Positions 1-60,232 are shown, numbered from the stretch's first letter. The stretch is 64,000 nucleotides of DNA from Candidatus Rokuibacteriota bacterium (GCA_016200085.1 JACQFL010000048.1:15350-79349); one strand, 5' to 3'. Program-made: numbers and translations. The notes: generated by a model not told the origin, from the sequence alone.

Positions 1-506
1 GCCATGCGGCAGCGCAGCGAGTAGTACCCCGTGACCATCACGATCTCGAAGATCTCCTCATCGCTGAAGCCGACCTGGCGCAGCGTCTCGACGTTCTCGG
101 GCGTCGCCTTCGCCGGCGCCAGCGCGAGGATCTCCACGTAGCCCAGCATCGCGCGCTCCGCCTCGGGCAAGGGCAGGGCGCGCCAGTTCTGCGCCAGGGT
201 CACGACCTGCGCGGCGTCACCACCGACGATCTGACGGAGAGCCTCTCCGTGAAAGGTCGTTCAGTAGGCGCAGCGATGCAGCGCCGAGGTGAGGACGGCG
301 ATCATCTCCTGTCGGCGTTTCCCGAGGGCGCAGTGCGGGCCCCTGAGCGCGTAGAGGAGGTCGGCGAGCGCCCGCATCACCCGCGCGTTGATGCTCGCCG
401 CGCGGGCGATGTTGGACACCGAGCCGTTTTGCTGCCAGACGTGCGCATACACGTCCGCCAGCTCTCCCGTCGCCTCAGCTTCCGAGATCGTCCTGATCCA
501 GGGCAT
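1..506 (-). CDS. AhpD-like / carboxymuconolactone decarboxylase family selenoprotein. It is partial and runs off the window start, with an in-frame TGA at 261..263 read as Sec.
   Basis: Minus ORF 261..878 carries the C-terminal AhpD-like core (MPWIRTISEAEATGELADVYAHVW...ALHRCAY) and stops at a TGA exactly where the CxxCxxxH motif needs its second Cys (HRCAY-U-TTFHGEAL). The same frame continues without a stop down to position 1 (…LRQIVGG…EEIFEIVMVTGYYSL…). There is a GGAAGGAGAGG Shine-Dalgarno sequence before the ATG at 504-506. Confidence 0.65.
234..250 (-). other. SECIS-like hairpin downstream of the Sec-UGA of the AhpD-like gene
   Basis: Minus-strand RNA reads UGA ACG ACC UUU C ACGGAGA-GGC-UCUCCGU. 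This is a perfect 7-bp stem with a GGC loop, starting about 10 nt after the UGA. Confidence 0.5.
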
Positions 507-910
507 CGTCCTCTCCTTCCTGATGGGAGTGGTCGAGGGAGACCGCCCGCCCGGCGGGAGGCGTTCGAAGCGTTCCCCCGGCGCCGCGTCAGCGGCGGGC
601 GTGTCGCCAAGGAGAGCGGCAGGGTGCTCCGCGCGACGCCGGTCATCGTACACCAGACACCGGGCGCCACTTCCGACCGGTGTGGGTGAAGTGCAGGACG
701 CCAACAGTCGTCTCGTGGCAGAACCTGTCGAGCCGCCGACCGGCGTCTTCGTCTCGCGCAGCGCGCCGAGCCATGGACGGGTATCCGCCGACGAGTCCTG
801 GCCCCGGCGCTCGCCTGGCTCCGGCGGTGAGGCGGGTCTCGGGGAATAAAGCTGGCACCTGGGCTGTTCTCCGAGCACGCACGAATCTCACCTTGCCGCG
901 GGAGGGACGC

Positions 911-1405
911 ATGAAGGGTTGGGGTCGGACCGTGGGGCTGACGGCGACGGCACTGGTCATGGGCGTCGGTGGGGCGTGGGCGCAGCAGCCTGCCAAGGGC
1001 ACCCCGGCAACGGTGACGGGGCGCGTCGTCGACAACATCTGCATGCTCGGCATGGGGCTCAAGGGCGAGGGACATCGGGAGTGTGCGATCGGCTGCGACA
1101 AGGCCGGTGTGCGCATGGCGCTCCTGGACGAGAAGGCCAACGTGCTTTACACGCTGATGGCCGACAAGCCGTTCGTCGATCCCAACGCCCAGATCCGCGA
1201 GTACTTCGAGCGCGTCGTGACGATCAAGGGCGACCTCTACAGCGCGCCGGGCGGCCAGAAGGTCCTCGCCATCAAGGAAGTGCAGGCGGCCCAGGCGGGC
1301 GCGGCGGCGAACCCCTGCGCCGCGAAGAATCCGTGTGCCACGAAGAATCCCTGTGCGGCCAGGAATCCTTGCGCCGCCAAGAAGCCGGCCAGCGCGACGA
1401 AGTAG
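911..1405 (+). CDS. Secreted protein with a cysteine-containing N-domain and a C-terminal tandem NPCA(A/T)(K/R) hexapeptide repeat
   Basis: GGGAGGG Shine-Dalgarno sequence before the ATG at 911. Signal peptide MKGWGRTVGLTATALVMGVGGAWAQQ. C-terminus is NPCAAKNPCATKNPCAARNPCAAKKP. Confidence 0.7.
   Translation: MKGWGRTVGLTATALVMGVGGAWAQQPAKGTPATVTGRVVDNICMLGMGLKGEGHRECAIGCDKAGVRMALLDEKANVLYTLMADKPFVDPNAQIREYFERVVTIKGDLYSAPGGQKVLAIKEVQAAQAGAAANPCAAKNPCATKNPCAARNPCAAKKPASATK
1309..1386 (+). repeat. 18-bp in-frame tandem repeat encoding NPCAAK units (about 4 copies)
   Basis: aacccctgcgccgcgaag / aatccgtgtgccacgaag / aatccctgtgcggccagg / aatccttgcgccgccaag. Confidence 0.7.
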
Positions 1406-1474
1406 CCAGGCGAGGCCGGGTGCCCTCGGCGGACCGAAGCGAGGCAGGCGCCGCTTCGCTTCGGCCCTCGCCTC

Positions 1475-1752
1475 TCAGCACGCCGTCATCTCGACGACGT
1501 TCATCTCCGCCCCGTCACCCCAGGGCGTGCACGGCAGGCCACTCGCTTCCGACGCCCTCTCACCCGTGCTCGCGGGCGGTGACAGGATGCAGGCGATCAG
1601 CGGGTTGTCGCGCGAGGTGAGCGCGGTGATGCTGGCAGGGGGCGGCTCGGTCGCGGCGGGGACGATGGGCGGCGGCTCCGAGACGCTCGAGAGCACCTCG
1701 AGCGCCACGAAGAGGGTGCCGGCCGCCAGCGCGCTGGCCGTGACGATACGCA
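1475..1752 (-). CDS. Small hypothetical secreted protein (about 92 aa)
   Basis: Internal Met of minus ORF 1475..1867 (MRIVTASALAAGTLFVALEVLSS...), with a signal-peptide-like N-terminus. No homology recognised. Confidence 0.3.
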
Positions 1753-1962
1753 TCGTGGTCCTCGACGAAGAAACCAGGTGACCCGTGAGGATATTCCCTG
1801 GGCGCCGCCGCGCTCGCCAGAGGATTCCGGCGACGGCGCGCATTCCCTTCCACACGAGAAGGGCCAACGTGGCGGAGAGTCAACAGTGTCCCCGCTGACC
1901 GTCACGGTTCTCCTGAGCGCTCATCTCGTTCCTGGGCATCGTGTCTCCTTGCCCGAGGGGAC

Positions 1963-2409: not shown

Positions 2410-2493
2410 ACCTGACGATCTAACCCGTCCCGGCCGTGGTTTATTCCGGACGCAGTGGAATGGCGTCACACGGTCGCGTGTTCTGTTCTGTTG

Positions 2494-3711
2494 ATGACGT
2501 TCCGCCGCGCGCTCTTGCGGGGGGCATCGCTGCTGCTGGTGCTTGGCGGCACGGCTCCGGCGGGCGGAGATGCTGGCGCCGACCGGGCCTTTCTCGATCG
2601 GCACTGGCGGAGACCGGTCCCGCCACAGGGCGAGGCGCCGGCGCGGTGGTCCGCACTCGAGAAGTCGCTCGCGCCGCAGAGCTGCGGGGCCTGCCATCAG
2701 GCCCAGCTCGCCGACTGGAAGACGAGCGTCCACGCGCGCAGCTTGGGGCCGGGCGTCGCCGGCCAGCTGGTGGAGATGCGCCGGAGCGATCCCGAATCCT
2801 TCCGGCTCTGTCTGTCCTGCCATGGGCCCCTGGCGGAGCAGCAGCCGGACATCGAGCGCCACGGCCGCTCCGTGCCGAATCCCGAGTTCGACCCCGGCCT
2901 CCAGGCCGCGGGTCTCGCGTGCGCGGTGTGCCACGTGCGCCAGCACGAACGGTTCGGCCCGCCCCGCCGGATCGGGATGGCGAAGGTCACGACGCCGCGG
3001 CCATCGCTTCCCCATGGTGGGGTGACGCGGACGCCGGCGTTCTCGCAGTCGACGTTCTGCACGAGCTGCCACCAGTTCTCCTCCGATGGCTTCGCGCTGA
3101 ACGGGAAGCTGCTGGAGAACACCTACGAGGAGTGGAAGCTCAGCGCCGCCGCGCGCGTGCGCCGGCAGTGTCAGGACTGTCACATGCCCGAGCGCCGGCA
3201 CCTCTGGCGCGGCATCCACGATCCGGACATGGTGAAGTCGGGCGTCGAGATCCTCGCGACGACGGCCCAGCGCTCGTATCGGCCGGGTGACGAGCTTGTG
3301 GCCACGATCGTGGTCAGGAGCGTCGGGGTCGGCCACGATTTCCCGACCTACGTCACGCCACGCGTCGTCGTGCGCGCGGCCCTGATCGACAACACGGGGG
3401 CTGCCGTGGGGGGCAGTGGGCAGGAGTACGCCATCGCACGCGAGGTCACTCTCGACCTGTCGCGGGAGATCTCGGACACCCGCATCCCTCCCGGTGGCAG
3501 CGCGAGCTTTACGTACCGGCGACGGCTCGAGCGCAAAGGCCTTTCGCTCAGCGTGAGCGTCATGGTGTATCCCGACCATTTCTACACGGGGTTCTTCGAG
3601 TCGCTGCTCGCCTCCGGTGCGGGCGCAGGCGCCCCCCAGATCCGCGAGGCGCTCGCGGCGAGCCGGCGATCGGCCTTCGAGATCTTCCGGAAGACCGTGC
3701 GCCTGACGTGA
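2494..3711 (+). CDS. Pentaheme c-type cytochrome (five CxxCH motifs), secreted
   Basis: CGACH, CLSCH, CAVCH, CTSCH, CQDCH. Signal peptide MTFRRALLRGASLLLVLGG. A GTG at 2455 is an alternative start. Confidence 0.8.
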   Translation: MTFRRALLRGASLLLVLGGTAPAGGDAGADRAFLDRHWRRPVPPQGEAPARWSALEKSLAPQSCGACHQAQLADWKTSVHARSLGPGVAGQLVEMRRSDPESFRLCLSCHGPLAEQQPDIERHGRSVPNPEFDPGLQAAGLACAVCHVRQHERFGPPRRIGMAKVTTPRPSLPHGGVTRTPAFSQSTFCTSCHQFSSDGFALNGKLLENTYEEWKLSAAARVRRQCQDCHMPERRHLWRGIHDPDMVKSGVEILATTAQRSYRPGDELVATIVVRSVGVGHDFPTYVTPRVVVRAALIDNTGAAVGGSGQEYAIAREVTLDLSREISDTRIPPGGSASFTYRRRLERKGLSLSVSVMVYPDHFYTGFFESLLASGAGAGAPQIREALAASRRSAFEIFRKTVRLT

Positions 3712-4083: not shown

Positions 4084-4617
4084 ATGCGGCAACGCCTCGC
4101 GCTCGTGGTTGTCGGAGGCGTGGCCGGCAGTGGGCTGTTCTGGCTGGTCCAGGTGATGACGGGCGGCCCGACCATCACCGCGTTCATGGGCGAACAGGTC
4201 GCTGCTGCCGGCGGATATCCGGCAACCCTGGCGCCCGCCTTCGGGTGGATCATCCATGTCGCCGTCGGTCTCTCGTACGCGTCACTGTTTGGGGTCGTCG
4301 TCGCCCCGCTCCGCTTGCTGCCGCGGGCCGCGCTGGCCGGAACGTCGCTCGTCATGGCAATCGTGTTCGGCTGGCTGACGACCGCCATCGCGCCGTCGGC
4401 CATCAGCGTGACGGTCGGGCTGCTCGGGCACCGGCGGTGGCCCGCCGAGATCTTTCCTTTGAATTGGGACGTCGGCTTGCCGTTCTGGAATCATCAGCTC
4501 TTCTTTCTCGCCAACTGGATCATGCAGGTGCTCGGCGGGATGGTCGTCCGTGCACGGGCGAGGTCGCGGCGGCGGAGCCTGATCACCGGGCGCGAGGGCC
4601 AGGGCGAGCGGGAATAA
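4084..4617 (+). CDS. Hypothetical integral membrane protein (4-5 TM helices)
   Basis: Hydrophobic segments. Starts 2 nt after the preceding stop. No family recognised. Confidence 0.55.
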   Translation: MRQRLALVVVGGVAGSGLFWLVQVMTGGPTITAFMGEQVAAAGGYPATLAPAFGWIIHVAVGLSYASLFGVVVAPLRLLPRAALAGTSLVMAIVFGWLTTAIAPSAISVTVGLLGHRRWPAEIFPLNWDVGLPFWNHQLFFLANWIMQVLGGMVVRARARSRRRSLITGREGQGERE

Positions 4618-4671
4618 ACGCCGGGGCCGGCGGGTTCAGGGGGAAACGTTTGTATCAAGGAGGTGAGTCGA

Positions 4672-4944
4672 ATGATCCGTCAGGTGATCGGCGGCATCGC
4701 GGTCGCGGCCGCGCTCGCCCTCGCGGGGACAGACGCTCTGGCCCAGCAGGCCAACCCGTGCGCGGCCAAGAACCCGTGCGCCACGAAGGCGGCCAATCCG
4801 TGCGCGGCCAAGAACCCGTGTGCGGCCAAGAAGCCGGCTGCTGCGAAGAACCCCTGCGCGGCCAAGAACCCCTGCGCGGCCAAGAACCCGTGTGCGGCCA
4901 AGAATCCTTGCGCCGCCAAGAATCCCTGCGCCGCCAAGAAGTAG
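4672..4944 (+). CDS. Secreted peptide made almost entirely of about 11 tandem NPCAAK-like hexapeptide repeats (about 90 aa)
   Basis: Strong AAGGAGG Shine-Dalgarno sequence. Signal peptide MIRQVIGGIAVAAALALAGTDALAQQ, then ANPCAAKNPCATKAANPCAAKNPCAAKKPAAAKNPCAAK(x5)K. Confidence 0.7.
   Translation: MIRQVIGGIAVAAALALAGTDALAQQANPCAAKNPCATKAANPCAAKNPCAAKKPAAAKNPCAAKNPCAAKNPCAAKNPCAAKNPCAAKK
4749..4938 (+). repeat. 18-bp tandem repeat array encoding NPCAAK units
   Basis: Repeated aa(c/g)cc(c/g)tg(c/t)gc(g/c)gccaag units. Confidence 0.75.
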
Positions 4945-5033
4945 GATCTTTCCGGAGCCGGCCGTGCCCCCCGGGACGCCGGGGGGCCGCCGCCCCGATT
5001 CCCGTCCGTGAGGATGATCTCGGCTCGCCGGGA

Positions 5034-6188
5034 ATGGTTCTGCCGCTCGCGGGTTTGATGCACGTCGTGGTTCTTGCGCGTCGCCTTCTGTTGAAAGTCG
5101 CCACGGTGTTGGTCCTCCTTCCGGCGCTTGCCATCAGTCCCGCATTCGCGCACGACGGTCCCCCCGCTGGCGCCGTCGTACCCAGCGAGCGCATCGATCC
5201 GCGCCAGGTCTATCCCTTCGGCGTCGTCGCCGGCGGGGGCGGACACTTCCACGTCCTGCAGGTCATGCCAGGGGAGCGACGCGTCTTTGCCGGCACCCAT
5301 CTGGGGCTGTTCGTGAGCGAAGACCGAGGGCTCACGTGGCGTCTCGTCGCGCCTCGCTTCAGCGGCGTCGACGTCCACGGCCTCGCACGCGATGCGGCCA
5401 CGGGAGCGTTGTATGCGGCGACCCACGGACAGGGCCTTCTCGTCAGCGAGGACGGTGGCACCCGGTGGCGGGACGGCTCGGCGAGCCTGCCCGGCCGCGA
5501 CCTGCACGCCCTCGCCCTCGATGCCCATGATCGGGGCACGATCTACGTCTGGTCCGTTGGCCATGGTCTCTTCGCTCGGCGAGGTCGCGTGCGGATGTGG
5601 GAACGCCTGGCGGGGCGAGAGGCCCTCACCCAGGTGGAGAGCCTCGCCATCCATCCACAGAATTCGCGGCGGCTCTACGCGGGAACCGCGGCCGGGGTGC
5701 TTGTCAGCGAGGACGGCGGCCGCCGGTGGATGCTACCGCCCGGCGGCCTCGAGCGTCGGACCGCCGGCGTCGCGGTCGTCCCGAGCCGGCCTGACATGGT
5801 CCTCGCCGCGACGTTCGACGGGGTCTTCGCCGGTCACGCAGCCGGCGCGGACTGGAAGCCGCTCGAGGCAGCGCCCTCGTGGTGGGGCCCGATCGTGGGG
5901 TTCGCGTTCGTCGGCGATCGGCCCGACACCGTCTTTGCCGTCTCGCACGAGGGACCGGTCGTCATGCGCGCGGTGTGGGATGGCCCCTGGATACCTCTCG
6001 CGGCGCGACCGCCGGCCACGAGTCGGCGAATCAGCGCCCGCCCTTCGGGGCCGGTCCACGAGCGCGGACCAACCGCAGTGGTGAGCACCCGGCCGTCACG
6101 GCCGATCAAAACCACGGTGGGCGTCGCCCGGACGCCATACGCCCGGGCGACCCGCATGTCGGGATCGAGCACCACGGGAGCGCTGTAG
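5034..6188 (+). CDS. BNR/Asp-box repeat (sialidase-like / Ycf48-like beta-propeller) secreted protein. The 3' end is uncertain.
   Basis: Repeated SxDxGxTW motifs (SEDRGLTW, SEDGGTRW, SEDGGRRW). Signal peptide (...KVATVLVLLPALAISPAFA). A TTG about 57 nt downstream of the ATG is an alternative start. The tail beyond about 6000 overlaps the convergent TlpA-like gene and may not be coding. Confidence 0.6.
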   Translation: MVLPLAGLMHVVVLARRLLLKVATVLVLLPALAISPAFAHDGPPAGAVVPSERIDPRQVYPFGVVAGGGGHFHVLQVMPGERRVFAGTHLGLFVSEDRGLTWRLVAPRFSGVDVHGLARDAATGALYAATHGQGLLVSEDGGTRWRDGSASLPGRDLHALALDAHDRGTIYVWSVGHGLFARRGRVRMWERLAGREALTQVESLAIHPQNSRRLYAGTAAGVLVSEDGGRRWMLPPGGLERRTAGVAVVPSRPDMVLAATFDGVFAGHAAGADWKPLEAAPSWWGPIVGFAFVGDRPDTVFAVSHEGPVVMRAVWDGPWIPLAARPPATSRRISARPSGPVHERGPTAVVSTRPSRPIKTTVGVARTPYARATRMSGSSTTGAL

Positions 6189-6553
6189 CCACGCGCCTTC
6201 ACCTCGCGGGCGACAGTCGTGGCGTCTTCACCGACATCGACGAGCACCGCGGTGAAGCCGTCCGGGGCGAGCTCCTTCGCCATCGCGTCGATCGAGGGCA
6301 ACTCCCTCGCGCAGTGCGGTCACCAGGTGGCCCAGAAATAGAGCATGACGAGATGGCCGCGGAACTGATCCAGCGACACCGTGTGCCCGGTGACGTCGCG
6401 CAGGCTGAAGGCCGGCGCCGTCACGGGCTCGGCCGCGGGCGCCACCCCCAGCGCGTCCCACAGCGCCGAGTCCGTCGTGGCACCCGCCGCGGCGGAGGCG
6501 ACGAACAGGACGCCGAGGACCACACTCGCCCAGGGGGGTCGCCGCGTGATCAC
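5834..6553 (-). CDS. TlpA/thioredoxin-like (redoxin) selenoprotein, periplasmic. In-frame TGA at 6320..6322 read as Sec (U-P-H-C). The 3' end is uncertain.
   Basis: ORFs 6320..6553 and 5834..6301 are in the same frame, separated only by a TGA: ...LVMLYFWATW-U-PHCARELPSIDAMAKELAP...ATPTVVLIGRDGRV. This is the thioredoxin WCxxC motif with the first Cys coded as UGA. Signal peptide MITRRPPWASVVLGVLFVASAAAGA. Confidence 0.65.
6293..6309 (-). other. SECIS-like hairpin downstream of the Sec-UGA of the TlpA-like gene
   Basis: UGA CCG CAC UGC G CGAGGG-AGUUG-CCCUCG. A 6-bp stem with a 5-nt loop, starting 10-11 nt after the UGA. Confidence 0.5.
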
Positions 6554-7134
6554 GCTTGAACCTCCCGCATCGAGTGGGTGGGGCGCGCTCTCACGTCGAT
6601 CGCGAGACGGCTGAGGATCTCGAGCGAGCGATCGTTGAACGGATCCACGCCGGGATTGGCGAGGCGGTGCTCGGCGAGGCGTGTGATCTTTCCCTCCTGG
6701 AGCCGCTCGATCTGGGGAGTGAACGCCTGGAATACCAGATTGACGAACCGCACGAGGCGCGCGTCACCCCGGGTTTCGTCGATGCGAAACCGACGCGCAT
6801 ACCGTTTGAGAGCCGCCCCGCTCTCGTACCGGTCTCCGATCGCCCAGAGGTTCAGGGTGAACAGCGCCTGCGGCCAGCCGTCACGCGCCATGGAGATGGC
6901 GACGAGATGCACGGTGTGATCGGGGAACAGCCTTACCGTGTGGAAATGTCCGGCCTCGTGCGTCGCGCCGTCGTGACGGTGAAAATATGACTGGCAGCCC
7001 GTGTCGCGGTCGAAGACCCCGTAGTCGTCCGGATACAAGGTCCAGGGCGTCACGTCGCGACCGCCGCAGGCGAGCTCCATCACCGTCGTGCCGTCACGCT
7101 CGAGCGCGGTGAGCAGCTGGCGAAGCTCGGTCAT
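6550..7134 (-). CDS. Hypothetical cupin-like protein (HRHDG...EAGHFH His cluster)
   Basis: Internal Met MTELRQLL of ORF 6550..7221. ATGA overlap with the downstream TlpA-like gene. Confidence 0.5.
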   Translation of the reverse strand: MTELRQLLTALERDGTTVMELACGGRDVTPWTLYPDDYGVFDRDTGCQSYFHRHDGATHEAGHFHTVRLFPDHTVHLVAISMARDGWPQALFTLNLWAIGDRYESGAALKRYARRFRIDETRGDARLVRFVNLVFQAFTPQIERLQEGKITRLAEHRLANPGVDPFNDRSLEILSRLAIDVRARPTHSMREVQA

Positions 7135-7150: not shown

Positions 7151-7933
7151 TCAGAGACGGTTGCGCTCGGCACGCTCGAGGCGGAGCCGGTCGGCGCACT
7201 CGAGGAGCGCGTCGTAATCAAGCGCCGACACCAGGCCGAAGACCGCGCGGCCGTCCGTCCACGCCACCGTCCGATAACCCTTCAGGTCTTTCGCGAAGTA
7301 CTCCTGCCCGCGGAAGGTCACAGGTCGGCCGGTCAGGTGCGCGTCGGGGCCGCTGACCGGCACGACGAACACCGACAGGAGCGTCCGGCCCTTCTCGTAG
7401 AAGATGTAGGCCACTTTGCGCTCGTGTGCCTCGGCGAGGCGGCCGCCGATCAACTGGATGCCCGCCGGCGAGTAGTCCGGAACGGCCACGCGAAGGCCGG
7501 CCCGCTGCTGGAACCACTGCTCGAGCTCGCCGCGGTCATTCGAGGCGAGCTCCACGGGCCGCTCGATCTGGGCGTAGGCGATGTGCTTGTCGACGAGCTC
7601 GGCCAGGAGCGGGGCGGAGGGCCGGCTCGCGGGCAAGAGGACCGCCACGAGGAGCGCCGCCACCGCGGCGGCGAGCGGCGCCACGAGCCAGGGGCGCCAC
7701 GCGACGCGGCGCTGCTCGCGGCGCACGAGCGCGGTGATCTTCGCGCGGAACTCCGGCGACGCCGCTTCCCGGGGCTGGCGGCGGAGGACCTCGCGGAACT
7801 GGCGCTCGCGCCCGAGGAGACCGGCGCAGTCCCGGCACCCCGCGAGGTGCGCGTCCGCCGCCGCCATCGCCTCCACCGGCAACTCGCCATCGAGGTAGGG
7901 ATGCACGCTCGCCGCGAATTCTCTGCAGCTCAT
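7151..7933 (-). CDS. Anti-sigma factor: zf-HC2 (HxxxCxxC) N-domain, one TM segment, periplasmic C-domain
   Basis: MSCREFAASVHPYLDGELPVEAMAAADAHLAGCRDCAG... 4-nt overlap with the upstream ECF sigma gene. Confidence 0.8.
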   Translation of the reverse strand: MSCREFAASVHPYLDGELPVEAMAAADAHLAGCRDCAGLLGRERQFREVLRRQPREAASPEFRAKITALVRREQRRVAWRPWLVAPLAAAVAALLVAVLLPASRPSAPLLAELVDKHIAYAQIERPVELASNDRGELEQWFQQRAGLRVAVPDYSPAGIQLIGGRLAEAHERKVAYIFYEKGRTLLSVFVVPVSGPDAHLTGRPVTFRGQEYFAKDLKGYRTVAWTDGRAVFGLVSALDYDALLECADRLRLERAERNRL

Positions 7934-8523
7934 TCCTCGTCCCTCACGTATCCATGCTCGCGCGCCAGCCGCGTGAGGGCCTGCCGCAGCAGGTGCCGGC
8001 CCCGCGACAGGCGGGACATCACGGTGCCCACCGGGCAGCCGACGACGTCGGCGACCTCCCGATAGCTGAGGCCCTCGAGGTCCACGAGCACCACGGCCTC
8101 GCGGAACACCAGGGGCAGGCCTTTGAGCGCCCGATCGACGTCACCATGCAGGACGGTCTGGAAGAACGCTTCCTCCGGGTTGACGAACCCCATCGACGTC
8201 GCGCTGGGCTGGCCGGTCTCCCACACGGCCGCATCGGGCTCCAGGACCTCACGCCCGTCCTTGCGCAGCCGATTCAGGAACACGTTTCTGAGAATCGTGA
8301 GGAGCCAGGCGCGACAGTTGGTCCCCGGGTTGAACCGGTGAAAGTTGCGGAACGCCCGCAGCACCGCCTCCTGGACCACATCCTCGGCCTCCCCCCGGCT
8401 GCGCGTCAGACGAAGCGCCGTCTGGTAGAGCGTCTCGAGATGGACGAGGGCCGTCCGCTCGAACTCGCTGCCCTCCGATGCCGCGGTCCGCCAGGGAATC
8501 GGAAACCCTCCTGTCGTGAGAAC
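7930..8523 (-). CDS. ECF (sigma-70 family, RpoE-like) sigma factor
   Basis: Regions 2 and 4 are recognisable (LVHLETLYQTALRLT..., LPLVFREAVVLVDLEGLSYREVADVVGCPVGTVMSRLSRGRHLLRQ). The GTG at 8523 is a guess. The ORF extends to 8682. Confidence 0.7.
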   Translation of the reverse strand, partial: VLTTGGFPIPWRTAASEGSEFERTALVHLETLYQTALRLTRSRGEAEDVVQEAVLRAFRNFHRFNPGTNCRAWLLTILRNVFLNRLRKDGREVLEPDAAVWETGQPSATSMGFVNPEEAFFQTVLHGDVDRALKGLPLVFREAVVLVDLEGLSYREVADVVGCPVGTVMSRLSRGRHLLRQALTRLAREHGYVRDEE

Positions 8524-8566: not shown

Positions 8567-9655
8567 TCAGGGAGCCGTACCGAGGATCGTCGTCGGGTGA
8601 AACGCCGCCCAGGCGAACCAGAACGCATCGACGTGAGGGATCGCACGCAGCCGGCGTCCCGCCAGCGGCCCCTTGACCCCACGGCCGAGCAGGTTCCAGG
8701 TCGTGCCGGTCTCCCGGTCGCGGAAGCCCCCCTCGTTTGCCTCGAATGTCAGGCTCTTTCCGTCGAGCATTCGACTGTAGACGGCGGTGGCGCCGACCGC
8801 GCGCGACCGCTCGATCCGCGCATCGTCGAGCGCCGAGAGGGCGCCCGGCTGAAAGAAGATCACGAGCGCCTCGCGGTCGATGGCGTCGTGCAGCACCCGC
8901 CGCTCGGCCAGAATCGGCCAGGGGTACGCCTTGGCCGTCTCGCCGATCTTCACGCCGACCACGCGCTCCTTCGGTGGCCGACGCGTATCCGGCCGACCGT
9001 TGAAGAGGAACGGACGAAGCTCCGGCTGATCGTATGACCCGTAGGGATTGGCGCCGTACTGGCGCTGGTGTCCCGTCTCCCGCGACAGGACCTTGCCGTC
9101 CGGGTGGGCCGCCTTCCAGTCCGCGAACGCGATCGTGTTGGCGGGCACCAGCGCGAGCCGCGTCCCCGCACGCTGGCCGACGAGGGCCCGACCTTCCATC
9201 TGCGCCCAGAGCGAGTGGCTCTGACGGTCGTACATGACGAGGTCGCTCTTGTACACCTTGCCCGACGTCCCGAAGTCGAGCGTCACGTCTCCGACCACCC
9301 GGTCGAACGCGATGCCCGAGTTGCGCAGCGGACAGAAGGTCACGACGACAGGCTTGCCCCCGACGGTGTCGTTCACGATCTCGTGCCACATGAGAATCTG
9401 GAGCGGATACGCCCGCGCATCGCCGTTGATCTCCAGCGCGAGCACGGGCTCCTGGGGCACCAGCCACGCGGCTTGACGCGCGGCGATGAACGCCGGTCGA
9501 TCGATCGCCGGGATGCCGTCTGGAGGCGGGCCGCCGGGGATGATCTCGTCGAGCGGGACCAGCGCCTTGCTCTCGTCGGTCCTGAGCCGCTCGGCGGTCG
9601 CCGCCGAAGCGATCAGGACGGTCAGCGCCACCATGATCGGTACGCGTTTCAACAT
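8567..9655 (-). CDS. DUF3179 family secreted protein
   Basis: Internal Met MLKRVPIMVALTVLIASAATA of ORF 8567..10048. Confidence 0.6.
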   Translation of the reverse strand: MLKRVPIMVALTVLIASAATAERLRTDESKALVPLDEIIPGGPPPDGIPAIDRPAFIAARQAAWLVPQEPVLALEINGDARAYPLQILMWHEIVNDTVGGKPVVVTFCPLRNSGIAFDRVVGDVTLDFGTSGKVYKSDLVMYDRQSHSLWAQMEGRALVGQRAGTRLALVPANTIAFADWKAAHPDGKVLSRETGHQRQYGANPYGSYDQPELRPFLFNGRPDTRRPPKERVVGVKIGETAKAYPWPILAERRVLHDAIDREALVIFFQPGALSALDDARIERSRAVGATAVYSRMLDGKSLTFEANEGGFRDRETGTTWNLLGRGVKGPLAGRRLRAIPHVDAFWFAWAAFHPTTILGTAP

Positions 9656-10129
9656 CTGCCGGCTCACGTGGTCCCTCCCTCGGGCGCGTCCGGCCTTACG
9701 GCGCCTGCACGGGCTCGCTCCGGTGCGACGCATCGATGGTCCGGGAGGACGTTCCAGGCGACGCGGCGGGTGACAGCGTGTCCATCGTCGCCTCCTTGCA
9801 GCGCCCTTCTCGGCGCCGTCACTGTAGAACACGCGGCGGGCCACCTCCATTCCCGCTCGGTCGCGAATCGCCATCGTTTCAAGCTCGGCAGGGGGCGGAT
9901 CGTGCGACTCGGAGAGTCGCCGTAGCGGAAGTCGCTGACGACGATGGGGTTTGTGCCCCGAAACGCCATCGGAGGAGCGGCTGGAGAGAAGACCCGGGAC
10001 GTTCGCGCGGAGGGGTCCGGAGAGCGGAAAGATCGGGTGACGCTGCACGATGTCGAGGTTAGCGGCCGGTCATCGGCCCCGGGGCGCCCGGCGGTCGTGG
10101 ACAGATCGTTTCACGCGTCGTGGCGCTGA

Positions 10130-11020
10130 TTAGACCGTCCGCTCCCGCTCGCCGAAGAGGCCGGTGGGGCGGATGACGAGCAGGCCGATCAGGAACACGA
10201 AGCCGTAGAGATCCTTGTAGGCGGCCGAGAAGAACACCGAGCCCAGGGCCTCGATGAGGCCGAGGAGCACGCCGCCGACGACCGATCCCAGGATGGAGCC
10301 GAGGCCCCCGATCACGATGATCTCGAAGCCCTTGAACGTCGAGATCGCCCCGCCCTCCGGATAGACGAGGAAGTCCGGCGCGAGGAGGGCCCCGGCCGCC
10401 GCGGCCAGGGCCACGCCCACGCCGAACGCGAGCATGTCGAGTCGGAGCACGTCGACCCCGGCGGTCTGGATGCCGACGCGGTTCTGGGCGGCGCCACGGA
10501 ACGCCGTCCCGATCCACGTGCGCTTCACGAGCAGGTAGAAGAGCGCGAGCAGCGCCAGCGTGGCGATGAGGGCCACGAAGCGGTTGCCGGAGATGGGCAG
10601 GGTGAGCAGCGTGGTCGGGCGCGCGTAGTCCCGCGGCGCGTACTGGTTGGGCCCGCCGAGCACGACGGCGAGGTTCCGGAAGAGGACCATGAGCGCGATG
10701 GTGACGATCGTCGCGTACTCGTCACGCCGCTCGATCCCCCGCACGTACATCGGGCGCAGGAGCACGCGCTGCGTGACGAGCCCGAGCACGAAGACCGCCC
10801 CCATCGTGAGCGGCAGCGCGATCCACCAGCGCCCCGGGCCGAGCACGGTGGCCAGCAGCGCGTACTGCACGTAGCTGCCGATCATGTAGAACTCGCCCAT
10901 GGCCCAGTTGATCATCTTCATGATGCCGTAGATGAACGTGATCCCGAGCGCCATCAGGCTGTAGATGACCCCGATGACGAGCCCCGAGAGCACGTACTGG
11001 GACAGGAGGAACGCGTCCAC
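10130..11020 (-). CDS. livH: Branched-chain amino acid ABC transporter permease (LivH-type)
   Basis: 296-aa polytopic protein with a typical LivH signature. Confidence 0.8.
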   Translation of the reverse strand: MDAFLLSQYVLSGLVIGVIYSLMALGITFIYGIMKMINWAMGEFYMIGSYVQYALLATVLGPGRWWIALPLTMGAVFVLGLVTQRVLLRPMYVRGIERRDEYATIVTIALMVLFRNLAVVLGGPNQYAPRDYARPTTLLTLPISGNRFVALIATLALLALFYLLVKRTWIGTAFRGAAQNRVGIQTAGVDVLRLDMLAFGVGVALAAAAGALLAPDFLVYPEGGAISTFKGFEIIVIGGLGSILGSVVGGVLLGLIEALGSVFFSAAYKDLYGFVFLIGLLVIRPTGLFGERERTV

Positions 11021-24797: not shown

Positions 24798-24827
24798 GAC
24801 CCCGCGAGGTGTATACTCCGGAGAGTC

Positions 24828-24915: not shown

Positions 24916-24980
24916 CGGATCGCGGCCGCGCCCGAAGTCTCGGGACAGCGGCCGTTGCTGTTTCCGGCCGCGGAGCGGGC

Positions 24981-47572: not shown

Positions 47573-49135
47573 TCAGGCGTCCAGCGAGTCCATGAAGCCG
47601 GCGATCTGCTCGACGCGCACGCCCGAGACCGCGATCTCCGGCGCGTAGATCACCTCGTCGGCCGCCCACACGATCGTGCCCTTGGCCTCTCTCGTCACGC
47701 CCATGACGTTCTCGAGCACGGTGGCGATGTTGTCGTTGATACGCAGCGCGTTGGCGCGCAGGGGCGCCGCCAGGCGGCCGTCGCGGATGACCCAGGAGTC
47801 GCCGACCACGGTGCAGGTGAAGTCGCCGGCGCGCAGGCCGTTGACCGGGTACGTGTACCAGATCCGGCCGACGTAGAGGCCGTCGCGCACCGTGCGGATC
47901 AGCTCCTCGAGGCTCACGGCCTCCGCGCCCTGCACCACCACGTTGGAGGCCGCCACGCCGGGGCCGCGGTCGAACTGGCGGCCGCCGCCGGCGCCGAAGC
48001 GGAAGCCGTTGCGCGGCACGAGCGCCCGCGCGGCCTCGTCGCCCGTCGCGCCGAGCTTGGCGGCCAGCGCCGGGTCGCGCAGCAGGCGCTGGGTCTGGTA
48101 CCAGCTGGACAGGCAGCCGACGAGCACGCCGTCCCTGATCAGGTCGGTGCGTCCCGTCGGCAGGCCCTCGCACGTGATGCCCTTGGAGCCGGTGTAGCCG
48201 GGGACGTTGCCCGCGTCCCAGACGCTCAGGCGCGGCGAGGCCACCTGCCGGCCGAGGCGGCCGAGGAACGGCGTGTTCGAGGCGTAGAAGGTGCCGGCGG
48301 AGCAGGCGGGCACGATGACGTTGTTGAGCAGGTCGCTGACCGGCTGCTTGCCGAAGATGACCGTGTACTCGCCCGAGGGCACGCGCTCGCCGCCGACGGC
48401 GGCGATGGCGTTGCCCGCCGCCTCGATGCCGGCCTCGTCGGAGAACTCCTCGAGGCGCGTGCCCGTCGACCAGCCCGAGCCCTTGGCGTCGCGCGCTTCC
48501 ACCATCGCCGTCACGAACGCCGTGATCAGGGTGGACTCGTCCGTCTGCGCCTCGGGCATGCGCGTCGAGACGATGGCGATGCGCTCCTGGAGGATCGTGA
48601 CGTCGCCGCCGAGGATGAGCCCCAGCGCGCGCAGCGCCTCGTCGCTGCCCGCCAGCTCCGCCAGCCTGGACGAGGCGAGGAAGGTGCGGAGCGCGCCGTT
48701 GACGATCGTCCAGCCCGCGCCCACGAGGGCCTCGTCGTCGATGGCCAGGAGCCTCGGGTCGGCGTAGTCCGTGAGGGTGCGCCGCTCGCGCGCCGGCTCG
48801 GGCAGGGAGACGAAGTCCGGATCGCGCACCGCCGCGGCGCGCGCCTTGTCGAGCGCGCGGCGGGCGCCCGCCTCGCCGAGGTCGGTGGGCTCGCTGCCGA
48901 AGCCGACCACCGGGCCCTGGGGCCCGTCGAAGACCACGTGGAGGCCGAGGCCCGAGGACTCGTCGGACTTCGGCTCCTCGACCCCGTTCGAGGGGATGTG
49001 CGAGGTGTAGCAGAGCCGGGTGAGCAGGCTCGCGTTCGAGGCGACGAAGACCTCGACCTCGCGCACGCCGGGCGCCCGGCGCGCGCCCTCGAAGGCGATG
49101 CGCGCGGCGCGCTCGAGCTCGGTCAGGGTCCGCAC
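47573..49135 (-). CDS. TldD/PmbA-family metallopeptidase homolog (divergent, 520 aa)
   Basis: TldD/PmbA fold, lacking a signal peptide. GAGGTGA Shine-Dalgarno sequence overlapping the upstream rhodanese stop. GTG start. Confidence 0.75.
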   Translation of the reverse strand: MRTLTELERAARIAFEGARRAPGVREVEVFVASNASLLTRLCYTSHIPSNGVEEPKSDESSGLGLHVVFDGPQGPVVGFGSEPTDLGEAGARRALDKARAAAVRDPDFVSLPEPARERRTLTDYADPRLLAIDDEALVGAGWTIVNGALRTFLASSRLAELAGSDEALRALGLILGGDVTILQERIAIVSTRMPEAQTDESTLITAFVTAMVEARDAKGSGWSTGTRLEEFSDEAGIEAAGNAIAAVGGERVPSGEYTVIFGKQPVSDLLNNVIVPACSAGTFYASNTPFLGRLGRQVASPRLSVWDAGNVPGYTGSKGITCEGLPTGRTDLIRDGVLVGCLSSWYQTQRLLRDPALAAKLGATGDEAARALVPRNGFRFGAGGGRQFDRGPGVAASNVVVQGAEAVSLEELIRTVRDGLYVGRIWYTYPVNGLRAGDFTCTVVGDSWVIRDGRLAAPLRANALRINDNIATVLENVMGVTREAKGTIVWAADEVIYAPEIAVSGVRVEQIAGFMDSLDA

Positions 49136-49139: not shown

Positions 49140-49559
49140 TCACCTCGCGGGCGTGCCCGCCGCGCGGCCCTCGACGGGGTAGCCCTTCTCCTGCCAGCCC
49201 GGCAGGCCCTCGTCGAGCACCTTGTGGTTCCGCCACCCCATCGCGTACAGCATGTTGCTGGCCCCCCGGGACAGCGCGTGGGGGCAGCCTCAGTAGAAGA
49301 CGGCGAGCCCCGTCTTCGTGATCTCGCCGGCGCGCTCGGGCACCGCGCGCAGCGGCATCGAGCGCGCGCCCTTGATGTGCAGCTCCGCGTACTCGGCCCA
49401 GTGGCGCACGTCGATGATGTCCGCCTTCGTGCCCGCGGCGAGGGCGGCGTGCAGCTCGGCGACCTTGATGAAGGCCACGGGGGACTCGGGCGGCGCCGCG
49501 GGCGCGGCGCCCAGCAGCACGCCGGCCGCGGCGAGCACGGGGATCAGGGTGCGGCGCAT
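49140..49559 (-). CDS. Periplasmic single-domain rhodanese (sulfurtransferase) selenoprotein. In-frame TGA at 49290..49292 at the active-site Cys position (VFY-U-GCPHALSRG).
   Basis: Signal peptide MRRTLIPVLAAAGVLLGAAPAAP. The rhodanese core (ADIIDVRHWAEYAELHIKGARSMPL...) runs up to the TGA. The same frame continues for 49 more codons through the rest of the domain (GASNMLYAMGWRNHKVLDEGLPGWQEKGYPV) to a TGA at 49140. It sits between two TldD/PmbA-like genes with 4-nt gaps. Confidence 0.65.
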
Positions 49560-49563: not shown

Positions 49564-51126
49564 CTAGCCTCCGAGGATCCGGGCGCGGCTGCGCATGGTA
49601 GGCCCGCCGTTGCCGAGCTTCTTGACCTGCATGGGCTGGCCCTTGCCACAGTTGGGGATGGGGTAGAGCGTGAAGTCGGAGCCCACGGCGTCGACGTTGA
49701 GAAGATAGTCGCGCGTGTCAGCGGCGATGCCGCCGTCGCGGTAGACCTGCCCCAGCTCGCCGTGCACGATCTCGTACACGCGGCGCGCCGAGATGCGGAA
49801 GTTCTCGCGGCTCTCGGCGATGGACGGCGTGCGGTGACCGCACACGTACCAGCCGCGGTCGACCTCGCGGATCATCTCTGCGGCCTCGCGGTCGCCGCCC
49901 GCGAAGACCGTGTTCGACATCCGGATCAGCGGCACCAGCGAGGCCTCGGTGGCCTTGAAGTGGCCGTTGGGCGCGCCCCCGAAGATCGCCGCGGTCTGGC
50001 GGCTGTTCATGAAGCCCTGGAAGATCCCGCGATCGATGTGCACCACGCGCCGCGCGGGCGTGCCCTCGTGGTCGTAGGCGTAATGGCCATAGCCGGGGAG
50101 CGCGGGGTCGGAGAAGGCGGTGACCAGCGGCGAGGCCACGCGCTTGCCGACCTGGTGCTGGTCGAGCCCGCGCAGCAACCAGGAGCGCCCGGCATACGCG
50201 GTCTCCATCTTGAGCGCGCGATCGAGCTCGACGGGGTGGCCGATGATCTCGTGGGACACGAGCGTGTTGTAGTGCGGATCGGTGACCACGACGACCTCGC
50301 GGTCCGACGAGGGCAGTACCGGCGCCTCGGCCATCTCGCCCGCCTCGCGCGCAAGATCGAGGGCGAGATCGACGAAGGGCGGGAAGCGGATCCACGGCTC
50401 GCTGACCCCGGTGGCGAGGATCTCCCAGCCGCGCTGATGGCCGGCCGCGTCGGAGATCCCGTGGCTCGTGGAGCCCGAGACCCCGACGGCGCTCACCCAG
50501 CCCTGGGTCAGCGCGAAGGACTGGTCGATCAGGCTGCCCTCGCTGGAGGCGAAGAGCTCGCGCGAGAGCTGGGTGAGCACGCCGATGTAGTTGTAGGACA
50601 CGCGCGGATCGCGCCCCGCGACCTGGCGCGAGACGTCGACGGCGTAGCGCACCATCTCGCCGAGCGGCATCGCGCGGGGGTCGATCGCGTACTCGGCGGC
50701 CACCGTGTCCTCCCGGACCTCGACGGGATGCAGGCGCGTGTCGGCCAGCGCGGCGCCGAGGGGACCGTGCTTGCCGCGCGCCTGGGCCTTCATCTCGGCG
50801 TTGACCCACGCCCGGCGGTAGGCGCGCTCCAGCGCCGCGCGGATAAGCCGCTCGAGGTCGGGGAGATCGGCGGCGCCGAGCGCCTGACCCATCCAGCCGG
50901 CCGCCACCGCGCGGTCGCCCGCGAGCACGCGGACCCCGAGGGCCAGCGTCGCGTCCTCGCCCGCGTACCGCGCGGCACCGTTCTCCGCCCCGGCGGACTT
51001 CGCCTCGGTGACCTCAAGGCGCAGGTCCGCATAGCGCAGGTGCGGCAGCCGCCCGGCAGCGTTGCGGAGGAGGTCACGCGCGCTGGACTTCACCGAGTCG
51101 AGATGGTCAACGCGTATCGGTGCCAC
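49564..51126 (-). CDS. TldD/PmbA-family metallopeptidase homolog (divergent, 520 aa)
   Basis: GAAAGGAG Shine-Dalgarno sequence and GTG start. TldD/PmbA fold. Confidence 0.75.
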   Translation of the reverse strand: MAPIRVDHLDSVKSSARDLLRNAAGRLPHLRYADLRLEVTEAKSAGAENGAARYAGEDATLALGVRVLAGDRAVAAGWMGQALGAADLPDLERLIRAALERAYRRAWVNAEMKAQARGKHGPLGAALADTRLHPVEVREDTVAAEYAIDPRAMPLGEMVRYAVDVSRQVAGRDPRVSYNYIGVLTQLSRELFASSEGSLIDQSFALTQGWVSAVGVSGSTSHGISDAAGHQRGWEILATGVSEPWIRFPPFVDLALDLAREAGEMAEAPVLPSSDREVVVVTDPHYNTLVSHEIIGHPVELDRALKMETAYAGRSWLLRGLDQHQVGKRVASPLVTAFSDPALPGYGHYAYDHEGTPARRVVHIDRGIFQGFMNSRQTAAIFGGAPNGHFKATEASLVPLIRMSNTVFAGGDREAAEMIREVDRGWYVCGHRTPSIAESRENFRISARRVYEIVHGELGQVYRDGGIAADTRDYLLNVDAVGSDFTLYPIPNCGKGQPMQVKKLGNGGPTMRSRARILGG

Positions 51127-58105: not shown

Positions 58106-58885
58106 ATGGATCTCGGACTCAAGGGGAAGACGGCGCTGGTCACGGCGTCGAGCAAGGGCATGGGGCGGGCCTGCGCGCTGGGGCTGGCCGCAGAGGGCGC
58201 GCGGGTGGTGATGTGCGCGCGGACCGAGGCCGATCTCCAGGCCACCGCCGATGACGTCCGGGCCAGGACGGGCGCCGAGGTCCTCGCGCTGCCCGCGGAC
58301 GTCACCAGGGAAACGGACGTGAAGAATCTTGTCGCGCGCGCCACCGAGCGGTTCGGCGGCGTGGACATCCTCATCGCCAACGCGGGCGGGCCGCCGCGCG
58401 GCAACTTCGACGACGTCAACGACCAGCAGTGGATCGGCGCCTTCGAGGTCTCCGTCCTCTCCGTGGTCCGGCTGATCCGCGCGGTGCTGCCGTCGATGCG
58501 GAAGAAGCGGTGGGGGCGGATCCTCACCATCCAGTCCGTGTCGGTCAAGCAGCCCGTGGAGGGGCTGCTCCTCTCCAATGCCGTGCGGCCGGGCGTCGCC
58601 GGCATGATGAAGACCATGACGCCCGAGCTCGGGAAGGACAACATCACGTTCAACGTGCTGTGCCCGGGCCGGATCATGACCGAGCGCTTGCTCGGTGGCG
58701 CCAGGCAGGCGGGCATGCCGGAGAAGGAATACCTCGAGAAGGTCGCGCTGGACATCCCGCTGCTCCGCGTGGGCACCCCCGAGGAGTTCGCCAACGTCGC
58801 GGTGTTCCTGGCCTCGGAGCGCTCCTCCTACGTCACGGGCGTCGCGCTGCAGATCGACGGAGGAGTGGTGCGCGCGCTGCTCTGA
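58106..58885 (+). CDS. SDR family oxidoreductase
   Basis: TASSKGMGRA ... NAG. 259 aa. Confidence 0.8.
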   Translation: MDLGLKGKTALVTASSKGMGRACALGLAAEGARVVMCARTEADLQATADDVRARTGAEVLALPADVTRETDVKNLVARATERFGGVDILIANAGGPPRGNFDDVNDQQWIGAFEVSVLSVVRLIRAVLPSMRKKRWGRILTIQSVSVKQPVEGLLLSNAVRPGVAGMMKTMTPELGKDNITFNVLCPGRIMTERLLGGARQAGMPEKEYLEKVALDIPLLRVGTPEEFANVAVFLASERSSYVTGVALQIDGGVVRALL

Positions 58886-58897
58886 GCCGACCGGCGC

Positions 58898-59692
58898 ATG
58901 CTGCGCGGCACGATCTCGCGGTTCTTCGCCAACGACGGCTTCTTCCTGGCCGCGGGACTCTCGTTCTTCTTCCTGATCTGCGTGATCCCGCTCGTCCTGA
59001 TCGGGGTCTCGACGGTCGGCTTCGTGCTGTCCAGCGAGCAGGCGACCCACGCCGTCATCGGCCAGCTCGTGCGGAACTTCCCCGTCTACCGGCACGAGAT
59101 CGAGCGAGCGATCCTGCGCATCGTGCAGACGCGCCGCGCCTCCGGCCTGGTGGGCACCGCGATGCTGGTGTTCTTCTCCACCCCCATCCTCGGGGCCTGC
59201 CGGCTCGTGCTGCACCGGATGCTCGGCGTGCGGGGAACGCGAGGCTATCTCCGCAATCTCCTGGTGGACGCCAGCATCGTCCTCATGCTGGGCGTGCTGC
59301 TCTTCGCGGGCACGATCGTGATCTGGACGGCGGACTGGCTCCAGGCCTTCGTGCTGGAGCCGGCCCGGGTGCCCGGGCGGTGGATCGACGCCGCCCAGAA
59401 CGGGGTCAGCCTGCTCCTGTCGATCTGGATGTTCTATCTCGCCTACCGCTTCGTGCCCCAGCGCCAGCCCCGCAAGGCCGCCGCCCTGGCGGGCGCCGTC
59501 CTGGCCGCGGTGCTGTGGGAGATCGCCAAGCAGCTTTTCCGGATGTACATCCGCAACGTCGGTATCTACGACCAGATCTACGGCACGCTGGGGGTGCTCG
59601 TGGCCTTCGTGATGTTCGTCTACTACTCGGCCATGGTGTTCGTGCTCGGCGCGTCGTTCGTGGCCTCGGTCGAGGCCCGGCGCCGCGGGTGA
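58898..59692 (+). CDS. YihY/BrkB (ribonuclease BN-like) family inner-membrane protein
   Basis: FFLAAGLSFFFLICVIPL ... 6 TM segments. Confidence 0.75.
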   Translation: MLRGTISRFFANDGFFLAAGLSFFFLICVIPLVLIGVSTVGFVLSSEQATHAVIGQLVRNFPVYRHEIERAILRIVQTRRASGLVGTAMLVFFSTPILGACRLVLHRMLGVRGTRGYLRNLLVDASIVLMLGVLLFAGTIVIWTADWLQAFVLEPARVPGRWIDAAQNGVSLLLSIWMFYLAYRFVPQRQPRKAAALAGAVLAAVLWEIAKQLFRMYIRNVGIYDQIYGTLGVLVAFVMFVYYSAMVFVLGASFVASVEARRRG

Positions 59693-59707
59693 GAGGAGGG
59701 TCCTGCC

Positions 59708-60232
59708 ATGGAGCGCACCCCCGAGGGGCTCGACCACACGGTGACGAGCCGGGACATCACCTTCGAGGCGGACGTCACGTCGGTGACCCCGTTCCTGAAG
59801 CTCGCCACGGTGAGCCGCGGCGGCGGTGATCACATGACGTTCGCGTGCGACGAGGGACCGAGCCTCGGCGGGCTGGGCTCGGCGCCCACGCCGCTGATGT
59901 ATTTCAGCGCCGCCCTCGCCTTCTGACTCATGACCCAGGTGTCCCGGTACGGGCACATGCTCAAGGTCGAGGTGACGCGCATGCGCATGCGCGTCCGGGC
60001 GCATTACCGCGTCACGGGGTCGGTCCTGAACGACACGATCGAGGGGGAGATGGTCGGCGCCGACACCATCCTGGAGCTCGAGTCGCCGGCGCCGCCCGAC
60101 CAGGTCGCCCGGGTGATCCGCAACGCGGAGCGCGGCTGCTTCGTCATGCAGGCGCTGCTGAAGCCCGTGCCCGTGGCCGCCACGACGGTGCTGAATGGCC
60201 AGGCCCTGCCGGCGCGACGCGACGCGTTGTGA
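59708..60232 (+). CDS. OsmC/Ohr-family peroxiredoxin-like selenoprotein. In-frame TGA at 59924..59926 at the first conserved Cys (SAALAF-U-LMTQV).
   Basis: ORFs 59708..59926 and 59930..60232 are in the same frame with only a TGA between them. The second conserved OsmC Cys is present (AERGCFVMQAL). Confidence 0.6.
59939..59956 (+). other. SECIS-like hairpin downstream of the OsmC Sec-UGA
   Basis: UGA CUC AUG ACC CAG GUGuCCCG-GUA-CGGGCAC. The stem has one bulge, the loop GUA contains a G, and it starts about 12 nt after the UGA. Confidence 0.4.

Follow-up and report, generated by a model that had tools for sequence, protein, structure and literature searches.

Four genes in a 64,000-nucleotide stretch of Candidatus Rokuibacteriota bacterium DNA (GCA_016200085.1, JACQFL010000048.1:15350-79349; hereafter the window, with coordinates counted from its first letter) each contain a single in-frame TGA at the position of a catalytic or redox cysteine of their homologues, and we consider it highly likely that all four TGAs are genuine selenocysteine (Sec) codons. 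The genes encode an AhpD-like protein, a TlpA-like thiol:disulfide oxidoreductase, a rhodanese and an OsmC-like protein. An initial annotation, made from the sequence, had proposed Sec recoding as the best explanation of these codons, and the comparative analysis reported here leads to the same view: the UGA is conserved in diverged orthologues, the frame downstream of it is under purifying selection, and the hairpins that follow it have undergone compensatory changes. The source is a Candidatus Rokubacteria metagenome-assembled genome (MAG) of the phylum Methylomirabilota, from soil or groundwater.

In-frame TGA codons and their downstream hairpins

The whole window, which has a GC content of 71.7%, was scanned for TGA codons that lie in frame and are flanked on either side by coding-like sequence. 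The scan recovered the AhpD-like, TlpA-like, rhodanese and OsmC-like genes at the same coordinates as the initial annotation, each with its single TGA. The remaining flagged TGAs were plain stops with the next gene in the same frame and were not retained as Sec candidates, and a more sensitive coding-score rescan of the window found no fifth Sec gene, only ordinary gene junctions. Since TGA terminates 53 of the 65 called genes, the window follows the standard code and recoding acts locally, which rules out a global reassignment of TGA. Three further claims of the initial annotation were borne out: the GC frame plot and the codon log-odds profile both show a coding signal that stays in frame across each of the four TGAs, alignments of homologues place a Cys at the TGA column in every case, and Pfam and NCBIfam matches agree with the four family assignments. 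The same TGAs recur in separately assembled contigs, and a near-clonal copy of the window is found in GCA_016178425.1 (99.94% identical over 11 kb).

A small hairpin begins 10-15 nt after each TGA. The free energy of these hairpins relative to shuffled sequences was dropped as evidence for a selenocysteine insertion sequence (SECIS), being non-significant for all four genes; because hairpin energy was uninformative, covariation and codon rarity were used instead. The features by which a SECIS element is recognized were found, namely a stem-loop shortly downstream of the UGA, a G or GU in the apical loop, and covariation. The covariation is seen in the AhpD-like and rhodanese families and, as one compensatory pair, among three TlpA-type copies; the OsmC-like hairpin is conserved among three sequences. 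No SECIS family matched the window at Rfam gathering thresholds, the sole Rfam match being a thiamine pyrophosphate (TPP) riboswitch.

The AhpD-like and rhodanese genes

The AhpD-like gene (1..506, minus strand, ATG at 506) belongs to the TIGR01926 peroxidase-related proteins of the CMD fold, the C-terminally truncated sequence scoring 105.7 bits against a cutoff of 81.8. Its 3' end lies beyond the start of the window, and the full C-terminus is known from a database fragment (P0229, MBI3827330.1). The TGA (263-261) replaces the second Cys of the CAYC motif, so that RCAYC of the Cys-type homologues becomes RCAY-TGA and the encoded motif is C-A-Y-U. Fragments of orthologues either stop exactly at ...HRC(A/T)Y or start just past that point. 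To survey relatives in a genome collection, we drew the query peptide patterns from the C-terminal half of the protein, which makes the scan free of bias toward TGA. Among the 35 relatives recovered, 30 have C-x-x-TGA; they cover at least six phyla and come from Rokuibacteriota, Chloroflexota, Acidobacteriota, Binatia, Armatimonadota, Myxococcales and the isolate Geodermatophilus sp. LHW52908.

All these C-x-x-TGA relatives have a hairpin with a 7-bp stem and a 3-nt loop after a 10-nt spacer, which in the window is ACGGAGA-GGC-UCUCCGU (234..250, minus strand). The stem varies in a compensated manner (ACGGAGA/UCUCCGU, ACGCAGA/UCUGCGU, ACGUAGA/UCUACGU, AUGCAGA/UCUGCAU), and a Gly to Ala replacement (GGA to GCA), for instance, is offset by the change of a Leu codon from CUC to the synonymous CUG. 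Pairing holds in 93.6% of cells in this register and in no more than 62.6% when the register is slid; compensatory changes are present in 13 cells, and none of 500 shuffles reached the covariation score. The stem is moreover written in the codons GGA, GCT and CGT, each of which makes up at most 4% of the usage of its own amino acid (p about 0.002). The protein resembles the known AhpD-like selenoprotein family (CxxU; PMC1088965) in its CMD/AhpD fold, in C-x-x-U followed by x-x-x-H and in a SECIS element just downstream; apart from position 4 of the stem, which is G-C in the window and C-G in most relatives, we saw no substantive difference. We are almost certain that the AhpD-like TGA is a genuine Sec codon.

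Two other loci with AhpD-like sequences deserve mention. On a 5.9-kb JGI contig (P0242), one called protein has a deiodinase-like C-terminal part (PF00837) fused to the N-terminal half of an AhpD-like orthologue and ends at the Sec TGA, which suggests that the deiodinase-like/Prx-like and AhpD-like Sec genes adjoin each other in that organism. In a Methylomirabilota MAG locus (L067, around 10001-10282), the AhpD-like match is limited to residues 100-193, with a stop upstream and no CxxU region, and this gene may be degraded.

The rhodanese gene (49140..49559, minus strand, ATG at 49559, stop at 49142-49140) encodes a single-domain protein (PF00581, 53.4 bits, cutoff 22.2) with the predicted export leader MRRTLIPVLAAAGVLLGAAPAAPP and the active-site loop F-Y-U-G-C-P-H-A-L-S-R. 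Its TGA (49292-49290) aligns with the catalytic Cys of PDB 6mxv (FYCGGGFRS) and of domain 4 of 1yt8. Of the best 120 database homologues, nearly all are 89 residues long and end just before the TGA. A metagenome scan yielded 54 orthologous loci (L009-L062) with 61-74% identity, 52 of which reach the Sec site, and all 52 have TGA there. Downstream of it they continue in frame with (T/G)CPHAL(S/A)RGAS..LY.LGWRN..VL.EGLPGW..GYPV up to a stop about 50 codons on. Of the codons that differ from those of the window in the 41 positions after the TGA, reading in the Sec frame makes 52% synonymous and reading in the two shifted frames 15% and 3%, while the corresponding value for the 41 codons upstream is 36%; the codons downstream of the TGA are thus under purifying selection in frame.

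The hairpin of this family, CUG(G/U)CCC-GKG-GGGCCAG, starts 15 nt after the UGA; the copy in the window (CUGUCCC-GGG-GGGCCAG, 49258..49274, minus strand) has one U.C mismatch. Two of its pairs link third-codon positions of both arms, which are nearly invariant and change jointly in two loci (L047 and L056). In this register 89.6% of cells are paired, with at most 64.3% in slid registers, and the covariation score was again reached by none of 500 shuffles. We are likewise almost certain that the rhodanese TGA is a genuine Sec codon.

The OsmC-like and TlpA-like genes

The OsmC-like gene (59708..60232, plus strand, ATG at 59708, stop at 60230-60232) encodes the motif A-F-U-L-M-T, of UxxT type, with its TGA at 59924-59926. 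The protein scores 167.7 bits (cutoff 95) against NF041052, the 'OsmC-related (seleno)protein' model, with Sec at the peroxidatic column, and most of the weight for the Sec assignment comes from this membership. At the TGA column (AF-TGA-LMTQ in the window), 12 of 13 full-length homologues have Cys (GFCLLTQ), and the resolving Cys (RGCFV in the window, RGCF) is invariant among the homologues. Most matches in an exhaustive search of representative sequences were fragments of 85-110 residues which begin right after the Sec column. That column holds TGA in both diverged orthologues for which DNA was available (L099 and L101, about 45% identity); a third locus (L100), degraded upstream, was left out of this count. 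The SECIS candidate (59939..59956, plus strand, 12-nt spacer) can be drawn as GUGUCC-CGGUAC-GGGCAC or in an inner register as CCCG-GUA-CGGG, and the stem occurs in the same register in both orthologues, where the U.G pair of the window is U-A in L101. The RNA structure is conserved, not proven. Comparison with the known OsmC-like UxxT selenoprotein (NF041052; PMC1088965, PMC13188914) shows the same motif (U-L-M-T) and the same invariant resolving Cys, with no difference detected, and we hold with great confidence that the OsmC-like TGA is a genuine Sec codon.

The TlpA/ResA-like gene (5834..6553, minus strand, GTG at 6553, stop at 5836-5834) encodes a thioredoxin-fold protein of the Redoxin/AhpC-TSA type (PF00578, 88.4 bits; PF08534, 88 bits) with the motif W-U-P-H-C, an instance of W-U-x-x-C. 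The TGA (6322-6320) takes the place of the first Cys of WCxxC: 13 relatives have FWATWCxxC where the window has FWATW-TGA-PHC. The decisive comparison is with the same Methylomirabilota MAG locus mentioned above (L067), whose gene cluster is syntenic with that of the window (ECF sigma factor 73.5%, anti-sigma 61%, DUF3179 72%, DUF6969 67% and TlpA-like 49% identity). Its TlpA-like orthologue reads YFWATW-TGA-PHC and ends at the usual C-terminus of the family, and the locus also contains a paralogue with FWGTW-TGA-PHC. The hairpin of the window (CGAGGG-AGUUG-CCCUCG, 6293..6309, minus strand, 10-nt spacer) is found in the same register in the orthologue (CGAGGG-AGUUA-CCCUCG), and in the paralogue as GGAGGG-AGUUU-CCCUCC, where the closing pair is G-C instead of C-G, one arm having Arg in place of Ala and the other a synonymous change in a Ser codon. 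AGG, a rare codon that represents 3% of Arg codons, is used in all three copies, and the Leu of the loop is TTG or TTA in two of the three copies, TTG representing 2% of Leu codons; the codon rarity of the window hairpin corresponds to p about 0.03. An orthologue and a paralogue with W-TGA-P-H-C and the same hairpin argue that the TlpA-like Sec codon is real, which we consider likely to a high degree, if the least secure of the four assignments.

Observations against Sec recoding and alternative explanations

Several observations weigh against the assignment of Sec to these codons. The folding of the 60-nt segments that follow the TGAs is no more stable than that of dinucleotide shuffles (z from -0.8 to +0.8), and stems as good as these occur in the same position range after 3.5-13% of the codons in the ordinary genes of this window of 72% GC. 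The initial annotation had counted a GC-rich hairpin after each TGA as evidence; the hairpins are present, and these figures deprive their presence alone of significance. For the OsmC-like hairpin there are three sequences to go by, and it can be drawn in two registers. The rhodanese of an 836-bp ENA contig (P0001), which is the only full-length homologue among the best 120 matches, has Arg at the Sec column (FYRTCP), which would reflect a change of TGA to CGA or else an error in the sequencing. None of selA, selB, selC and selD is found in the window, as the initial annotation had stated: a tRNA scan of the window and a search for SelA, SelB and SelD domains among its larger genes were both negative. 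Finally, two points concern the TlpA-like gene. Its frame runs about 60 codons beyond the family C-terminus (near 6020), and this tail (5834-6020, minus strand) is non-conserved, has a non-coding-like composition and overlaps a convergent BNR/Sortilin-like open reading frame (ORF) (4245-6188, plus strand). In addition, the Sec orthologue comes from one independent genome, the other copies being identical or 99.94% identical to the window.

The alternative that survives best follows from these last points: there would be three real Sec genes, and the TlpA-like gene would be a recent pseudogene in which TGC or TGT mutated to TGA in the first Cys of WCxxC and the normal stop was lost. A search of 5.8 billion proteins found no orthologue with more than 49% identity, every relative found had Cys, and the copies in the same population differ from the window by 0 and 7 mismatches; the lack of a close orthologue, the odd tail and the near-identical copies together make this a serious rival. 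What speaks against it is that the syntenic orthologue and the paralogue of L067 keep both the TGA at its column, within W-U-P-H-C, and the hairpin in its register, with one compensatory change, that the hairpin is built with rare AGG and TTG/TTA codons, that the coding signal continues after the TGA up to the family C-terminus, and that UxxC selenoproteins of the thiol-disulfide isomerase-like type are already known (PMC1088965). We therefore regard a pseudogene as improbable. We take the tail of the TlpA-like gene to be the result of a lineage-specific loss of the stop codon.

A second alternative accepts the read-through of the UGAs with the help of the hairpins and supposes that Cys or another standard amino acid is inserted. 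Some bacteria reportedly have a tRNA-Sec-like tRNA-Cys with a UCA anticodon which could serve this purpose. There is no sign of selenium metabolism within the window, and comparative evidence of the kind given above demonstrates that the UGAs are read through and that an RNA signal exists, but not which residue is inserted. On the other side, all four families and motifs are catalogued as selenoproteins, two of them with curated NCBIfam (seleno)protein assignments (PMC13188914), and large selenoproteomes are reported for Methylomirabilota MAGs, at least as that review summarizes them. A scan of 40 loci for tRNAs identified a canonical tRNA-Sec (anticodon TCA) in Geodermatophilus only (L084, 1169-1263, minus strand), about 500 nt from the TGA-containing AhpD-like homologue of isolate LHW52908; no sel genes were recognized in the 10 kb downstream of this tRNA, and an IS110 transposase lies nearby. 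Moreover, keeping a UGA and a SECIS element just to insert Cys would offer no obvious advantage over TGC. Insertion of a standard amino acid is thus very unlikely, and we assume that the source genome encodes the Sec decoding machinery.

That the four TGAs are unrelated artefacts, whether errors of sequencing or assembly, nonsense mutations that arose by chance, or sense codons in a reassigned code, is effectively refuted by their conservation: each lies one substitution from a Cys codon and MAG assemblies can have errors, but the same TGAs appear in separately assembled contigs and in dozens of diverged orthologues, they align with Cys and not with Trp or Gly, and TGA ends ordinary genes throughout the window.

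Proposed recoding and relation to known selenoproteins

With Sec as the favoured residue, the UGA at the catalytic or redox Cys position of each mRNA would be recoded under the direction of a short SECIS stem-loop located 10-15 nt downstream within the coding sequence, which SelB with Sec-tRNA(Sec) would recognize. Four products would result. Two would be cytoplasmic: an AhpD-like CxxU protein and an OsmC-like UxxT hydroperoxide reductase with a resolving Cys. The other two would be exported: a TlpA/ResA-like UxxC thiol:disulfide reductase, co-transcribed with an ECF sigma/anti-sigma pair, and a rhodanese with a U-x-C active-site loop, whose gene lies between two TldD/PmbA-family genes. The initial annotation had likewise predicted that two of the four proteins are exported, and by inspection the rhodanese and the TlpA-like protein both have an N-terminal RR followed by a hydrophobic stretch. 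The actual insertion of Sec, the export and the enzymatic roles of the four products are what we infer from sequence.

None of the families is new. AhpD-like (CXXU), thiol-disulfide isomerase-like (UXXC) and OsmC-like (UXXT) proteins and a rhodanese-related sulfurtransferase were introduced as selenoprotein families by the Sargasso Sea study (Zhang, Fomenko & Gladyshev 2005; PMC1088965), and a 2026 review (PMC13188914) tabulates all four together with their motifs. The TlpA-like protein shares with the thiol-disulfide isomerase-like selenoprotein (TlpA-like, cd02966, UxxC; PMC1088965, PMC13188914) its fold, its leader and the Sec at the first Cys of WCxxC. It differs from the known relatives by its operon with an ECF sigma, an anti-sigma and a DUF6969 gene and by the extra non-conserved tail of about 60 residues, and it falls below the cutoffs of two Sec-redoxin models (NF041054 WAxxUGC_long, 58.5 versus 300 bits; NF053656 TUGYCR, 21.7 versus 100).

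The clustering of Sec genes would reflect a lineage with wide use of Sec in thiol-redox proteins. The initial annotation had gone as far as to suggest an organism rich in thiol-redox selenoproteins, and this fits two sets of observations. A second Rokuibacteriota MAG (L065) has four Sec candidates in an 18-kb locus: an AhpD-like Sec gene and, near it, three further strong candidates with minus-strand TGAs (14995, 13814 and 12423) within about 2.5 kb, in the contexts GCNY-U-ATH (CMD/AhpD type), VTW-U-PLC (DUF3179 type) and GHW-U-PYC (Prx type). In the literature, 63 selenoproteins are predicted for one Methylomirabilota MAG among the more than 44,000 surveyed from groundwater, which exceeds the earlier bacterial record of 57 (Deng et al. 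2026, Cell Rep 45:116760, as cited in PMC13188914). To the extent that the review describes this MAG, it has the phylum, the habitat type (groundwater MAGs) and the dense use of Sec in redox proteins in common with the window. A Sec-rich lineage biased toward thiol-redox proteins is therefore already anticipated in print and the four genes are new members of known families; families, motifs and mechanism being all established, the biological advance is incremental. The value of our data lies in an independent, covariation-backed support for large selenoproteomes dominated by thiol-redox proteins in Methylomirabilota/Rokubacteria, an abundant soil and groundwater phylum not earlier counted among the classic Sec-rich lineages.

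A possible new form of Sec-rhodanese

The exported U-x-C-P-H rhodanese is the one element of the window that is possibly undescribed. Five forms of Sec-rhodanese are listed (PMC13188914): UxxS, UxxG, CxU (NF041203 'LYCAU'), a further UxxG and the UxxxxU form of TsoB. The protein of the window has in common with them a single rhodanese domain and a Sec at or beside the catalytic Cys. The nearest curated model is NF041203, the only one for a Sec-rhodanese of similar size, against which it scores 43.8 bits (cutoff 115), with a motif Y-U-(T/G)-C instead of C-A-U, and it thus lies outside that family. When the listed motifs are compared, Y-U-x-C-P-H matches none of the five: its Sec occupies the place of the canonical Cys, and a Cys follows at +2. 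In its loop, F-Y-U-(T/G)-C-P-H-A-L-(S/A)-R, the Arg is 8 residues downstream and not 5. Judged by the model name LYCAU alone, the U-x-C arrangement seemingly mirrors the C-A-U of NF041203. The predicted export leader, whose GAAPAAPP segment is among the most conserved of the family, and the flanking TldD/PmbA genes are further differences.

These flanking genes encode proteins of 520 residues each and bracket the rhodanese gene on the same minus strand (49564-51126 and 47573-49135). A TldD/PmbA gene lies upstream of the rhodanese in 51 of the 54 loci and downstream in 46 of the 54, the remainder being cut by contig ends. The module is followed by a DinB_2 gene (47024-47563 in the window), and the same order is found in essentially every orthologous locus with enough flank. 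A second TldD/PmbA pair of the window (29145-31945, plus strand), canonical and three-domain, is separate from the pair that flanks the rhodanese.

From these features we would tentatively propose that the F-Y-U-x-C-P-H rhodanese, found in about 50 independent soil and groundwater lineages, is an uncatalogued sixth form of Sec-rhodanese, which may form a selenenylsulfide between Sec and the +2 Cys and serve the flanking TldD/PmbA proteins outside the cytoplasm as a dedicated partner in redox reactions or in sulfur/selenium transfer; taken as a whole, this proposal is more doubtful than probable. If true, TldD/PmbA, Sec-rhodanese and TldD/PmbA would constitute a new three-gene selenoenzyme module, and this conserved arrangement is the one lead that might reward experimental work.

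Genomic context and public annotation

The TlpA-like gene is the last of an operon on the minus strand, which agrees with the early claim that one of the four genes is under an ECF (extracytoplasmic function) sigma factor. The operon begins with the sigma factor gene (7930-8379, or to 8682) and continues with a zf-HC2 anti-sigma gene (7151-7933) and a DUF6969 gene (6550-7134, or to 7221), the stop of which overlaps the TlpA-like start. Beside it lies a DUF3179 gene (8567-10048, minus strand), whose start is probably internal, at MLKRVPIM. DUF3179 is a listed selenoprotein family (UxxC/T), and the gene was considered as a fifth Sec gene and rejected, because it lacks an internal TGA and is a Cys-type copy (VTFCPLRN). 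A plus-strand gene (2455-3711) situated between the AhpD-like and TlpA-like genes encodes a multihaem c-type cytochrome with MtrC/MtrF-like and NapC/NirT-like matches, the counterpart of which in L067 is 55-65% identical.

The public records of this MAG (locus tags HY294_, 113-kb contig) split all four genes into fragments that are not annotated as selenoproteins. The AhpD-like gene appears as a hypothetical protein of 104 residues (MBI3827330.1, HY294_15155), the TlpA-like gene as a TlpA family protein of 149 residues (MBI3827337.1), the rhodanese as a rhodanese-like protein of 89 residues (MBI3827384.1) and the OsmC-like gene as separate ORFs of 72 and 100 residues. The practical value of the analysis is a corrected public annotation of the MAG, together with the rhodanese/TldD module; it also shows that selenoprotein genes can be picked out correctly by a reader of raw sequence. 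As for the TPP riboswitch (Rfam RF00059, 56.3 bits), it is located at 24824-24924 on the plus strand, upstream of ORFs that start at 24981 and 25183.

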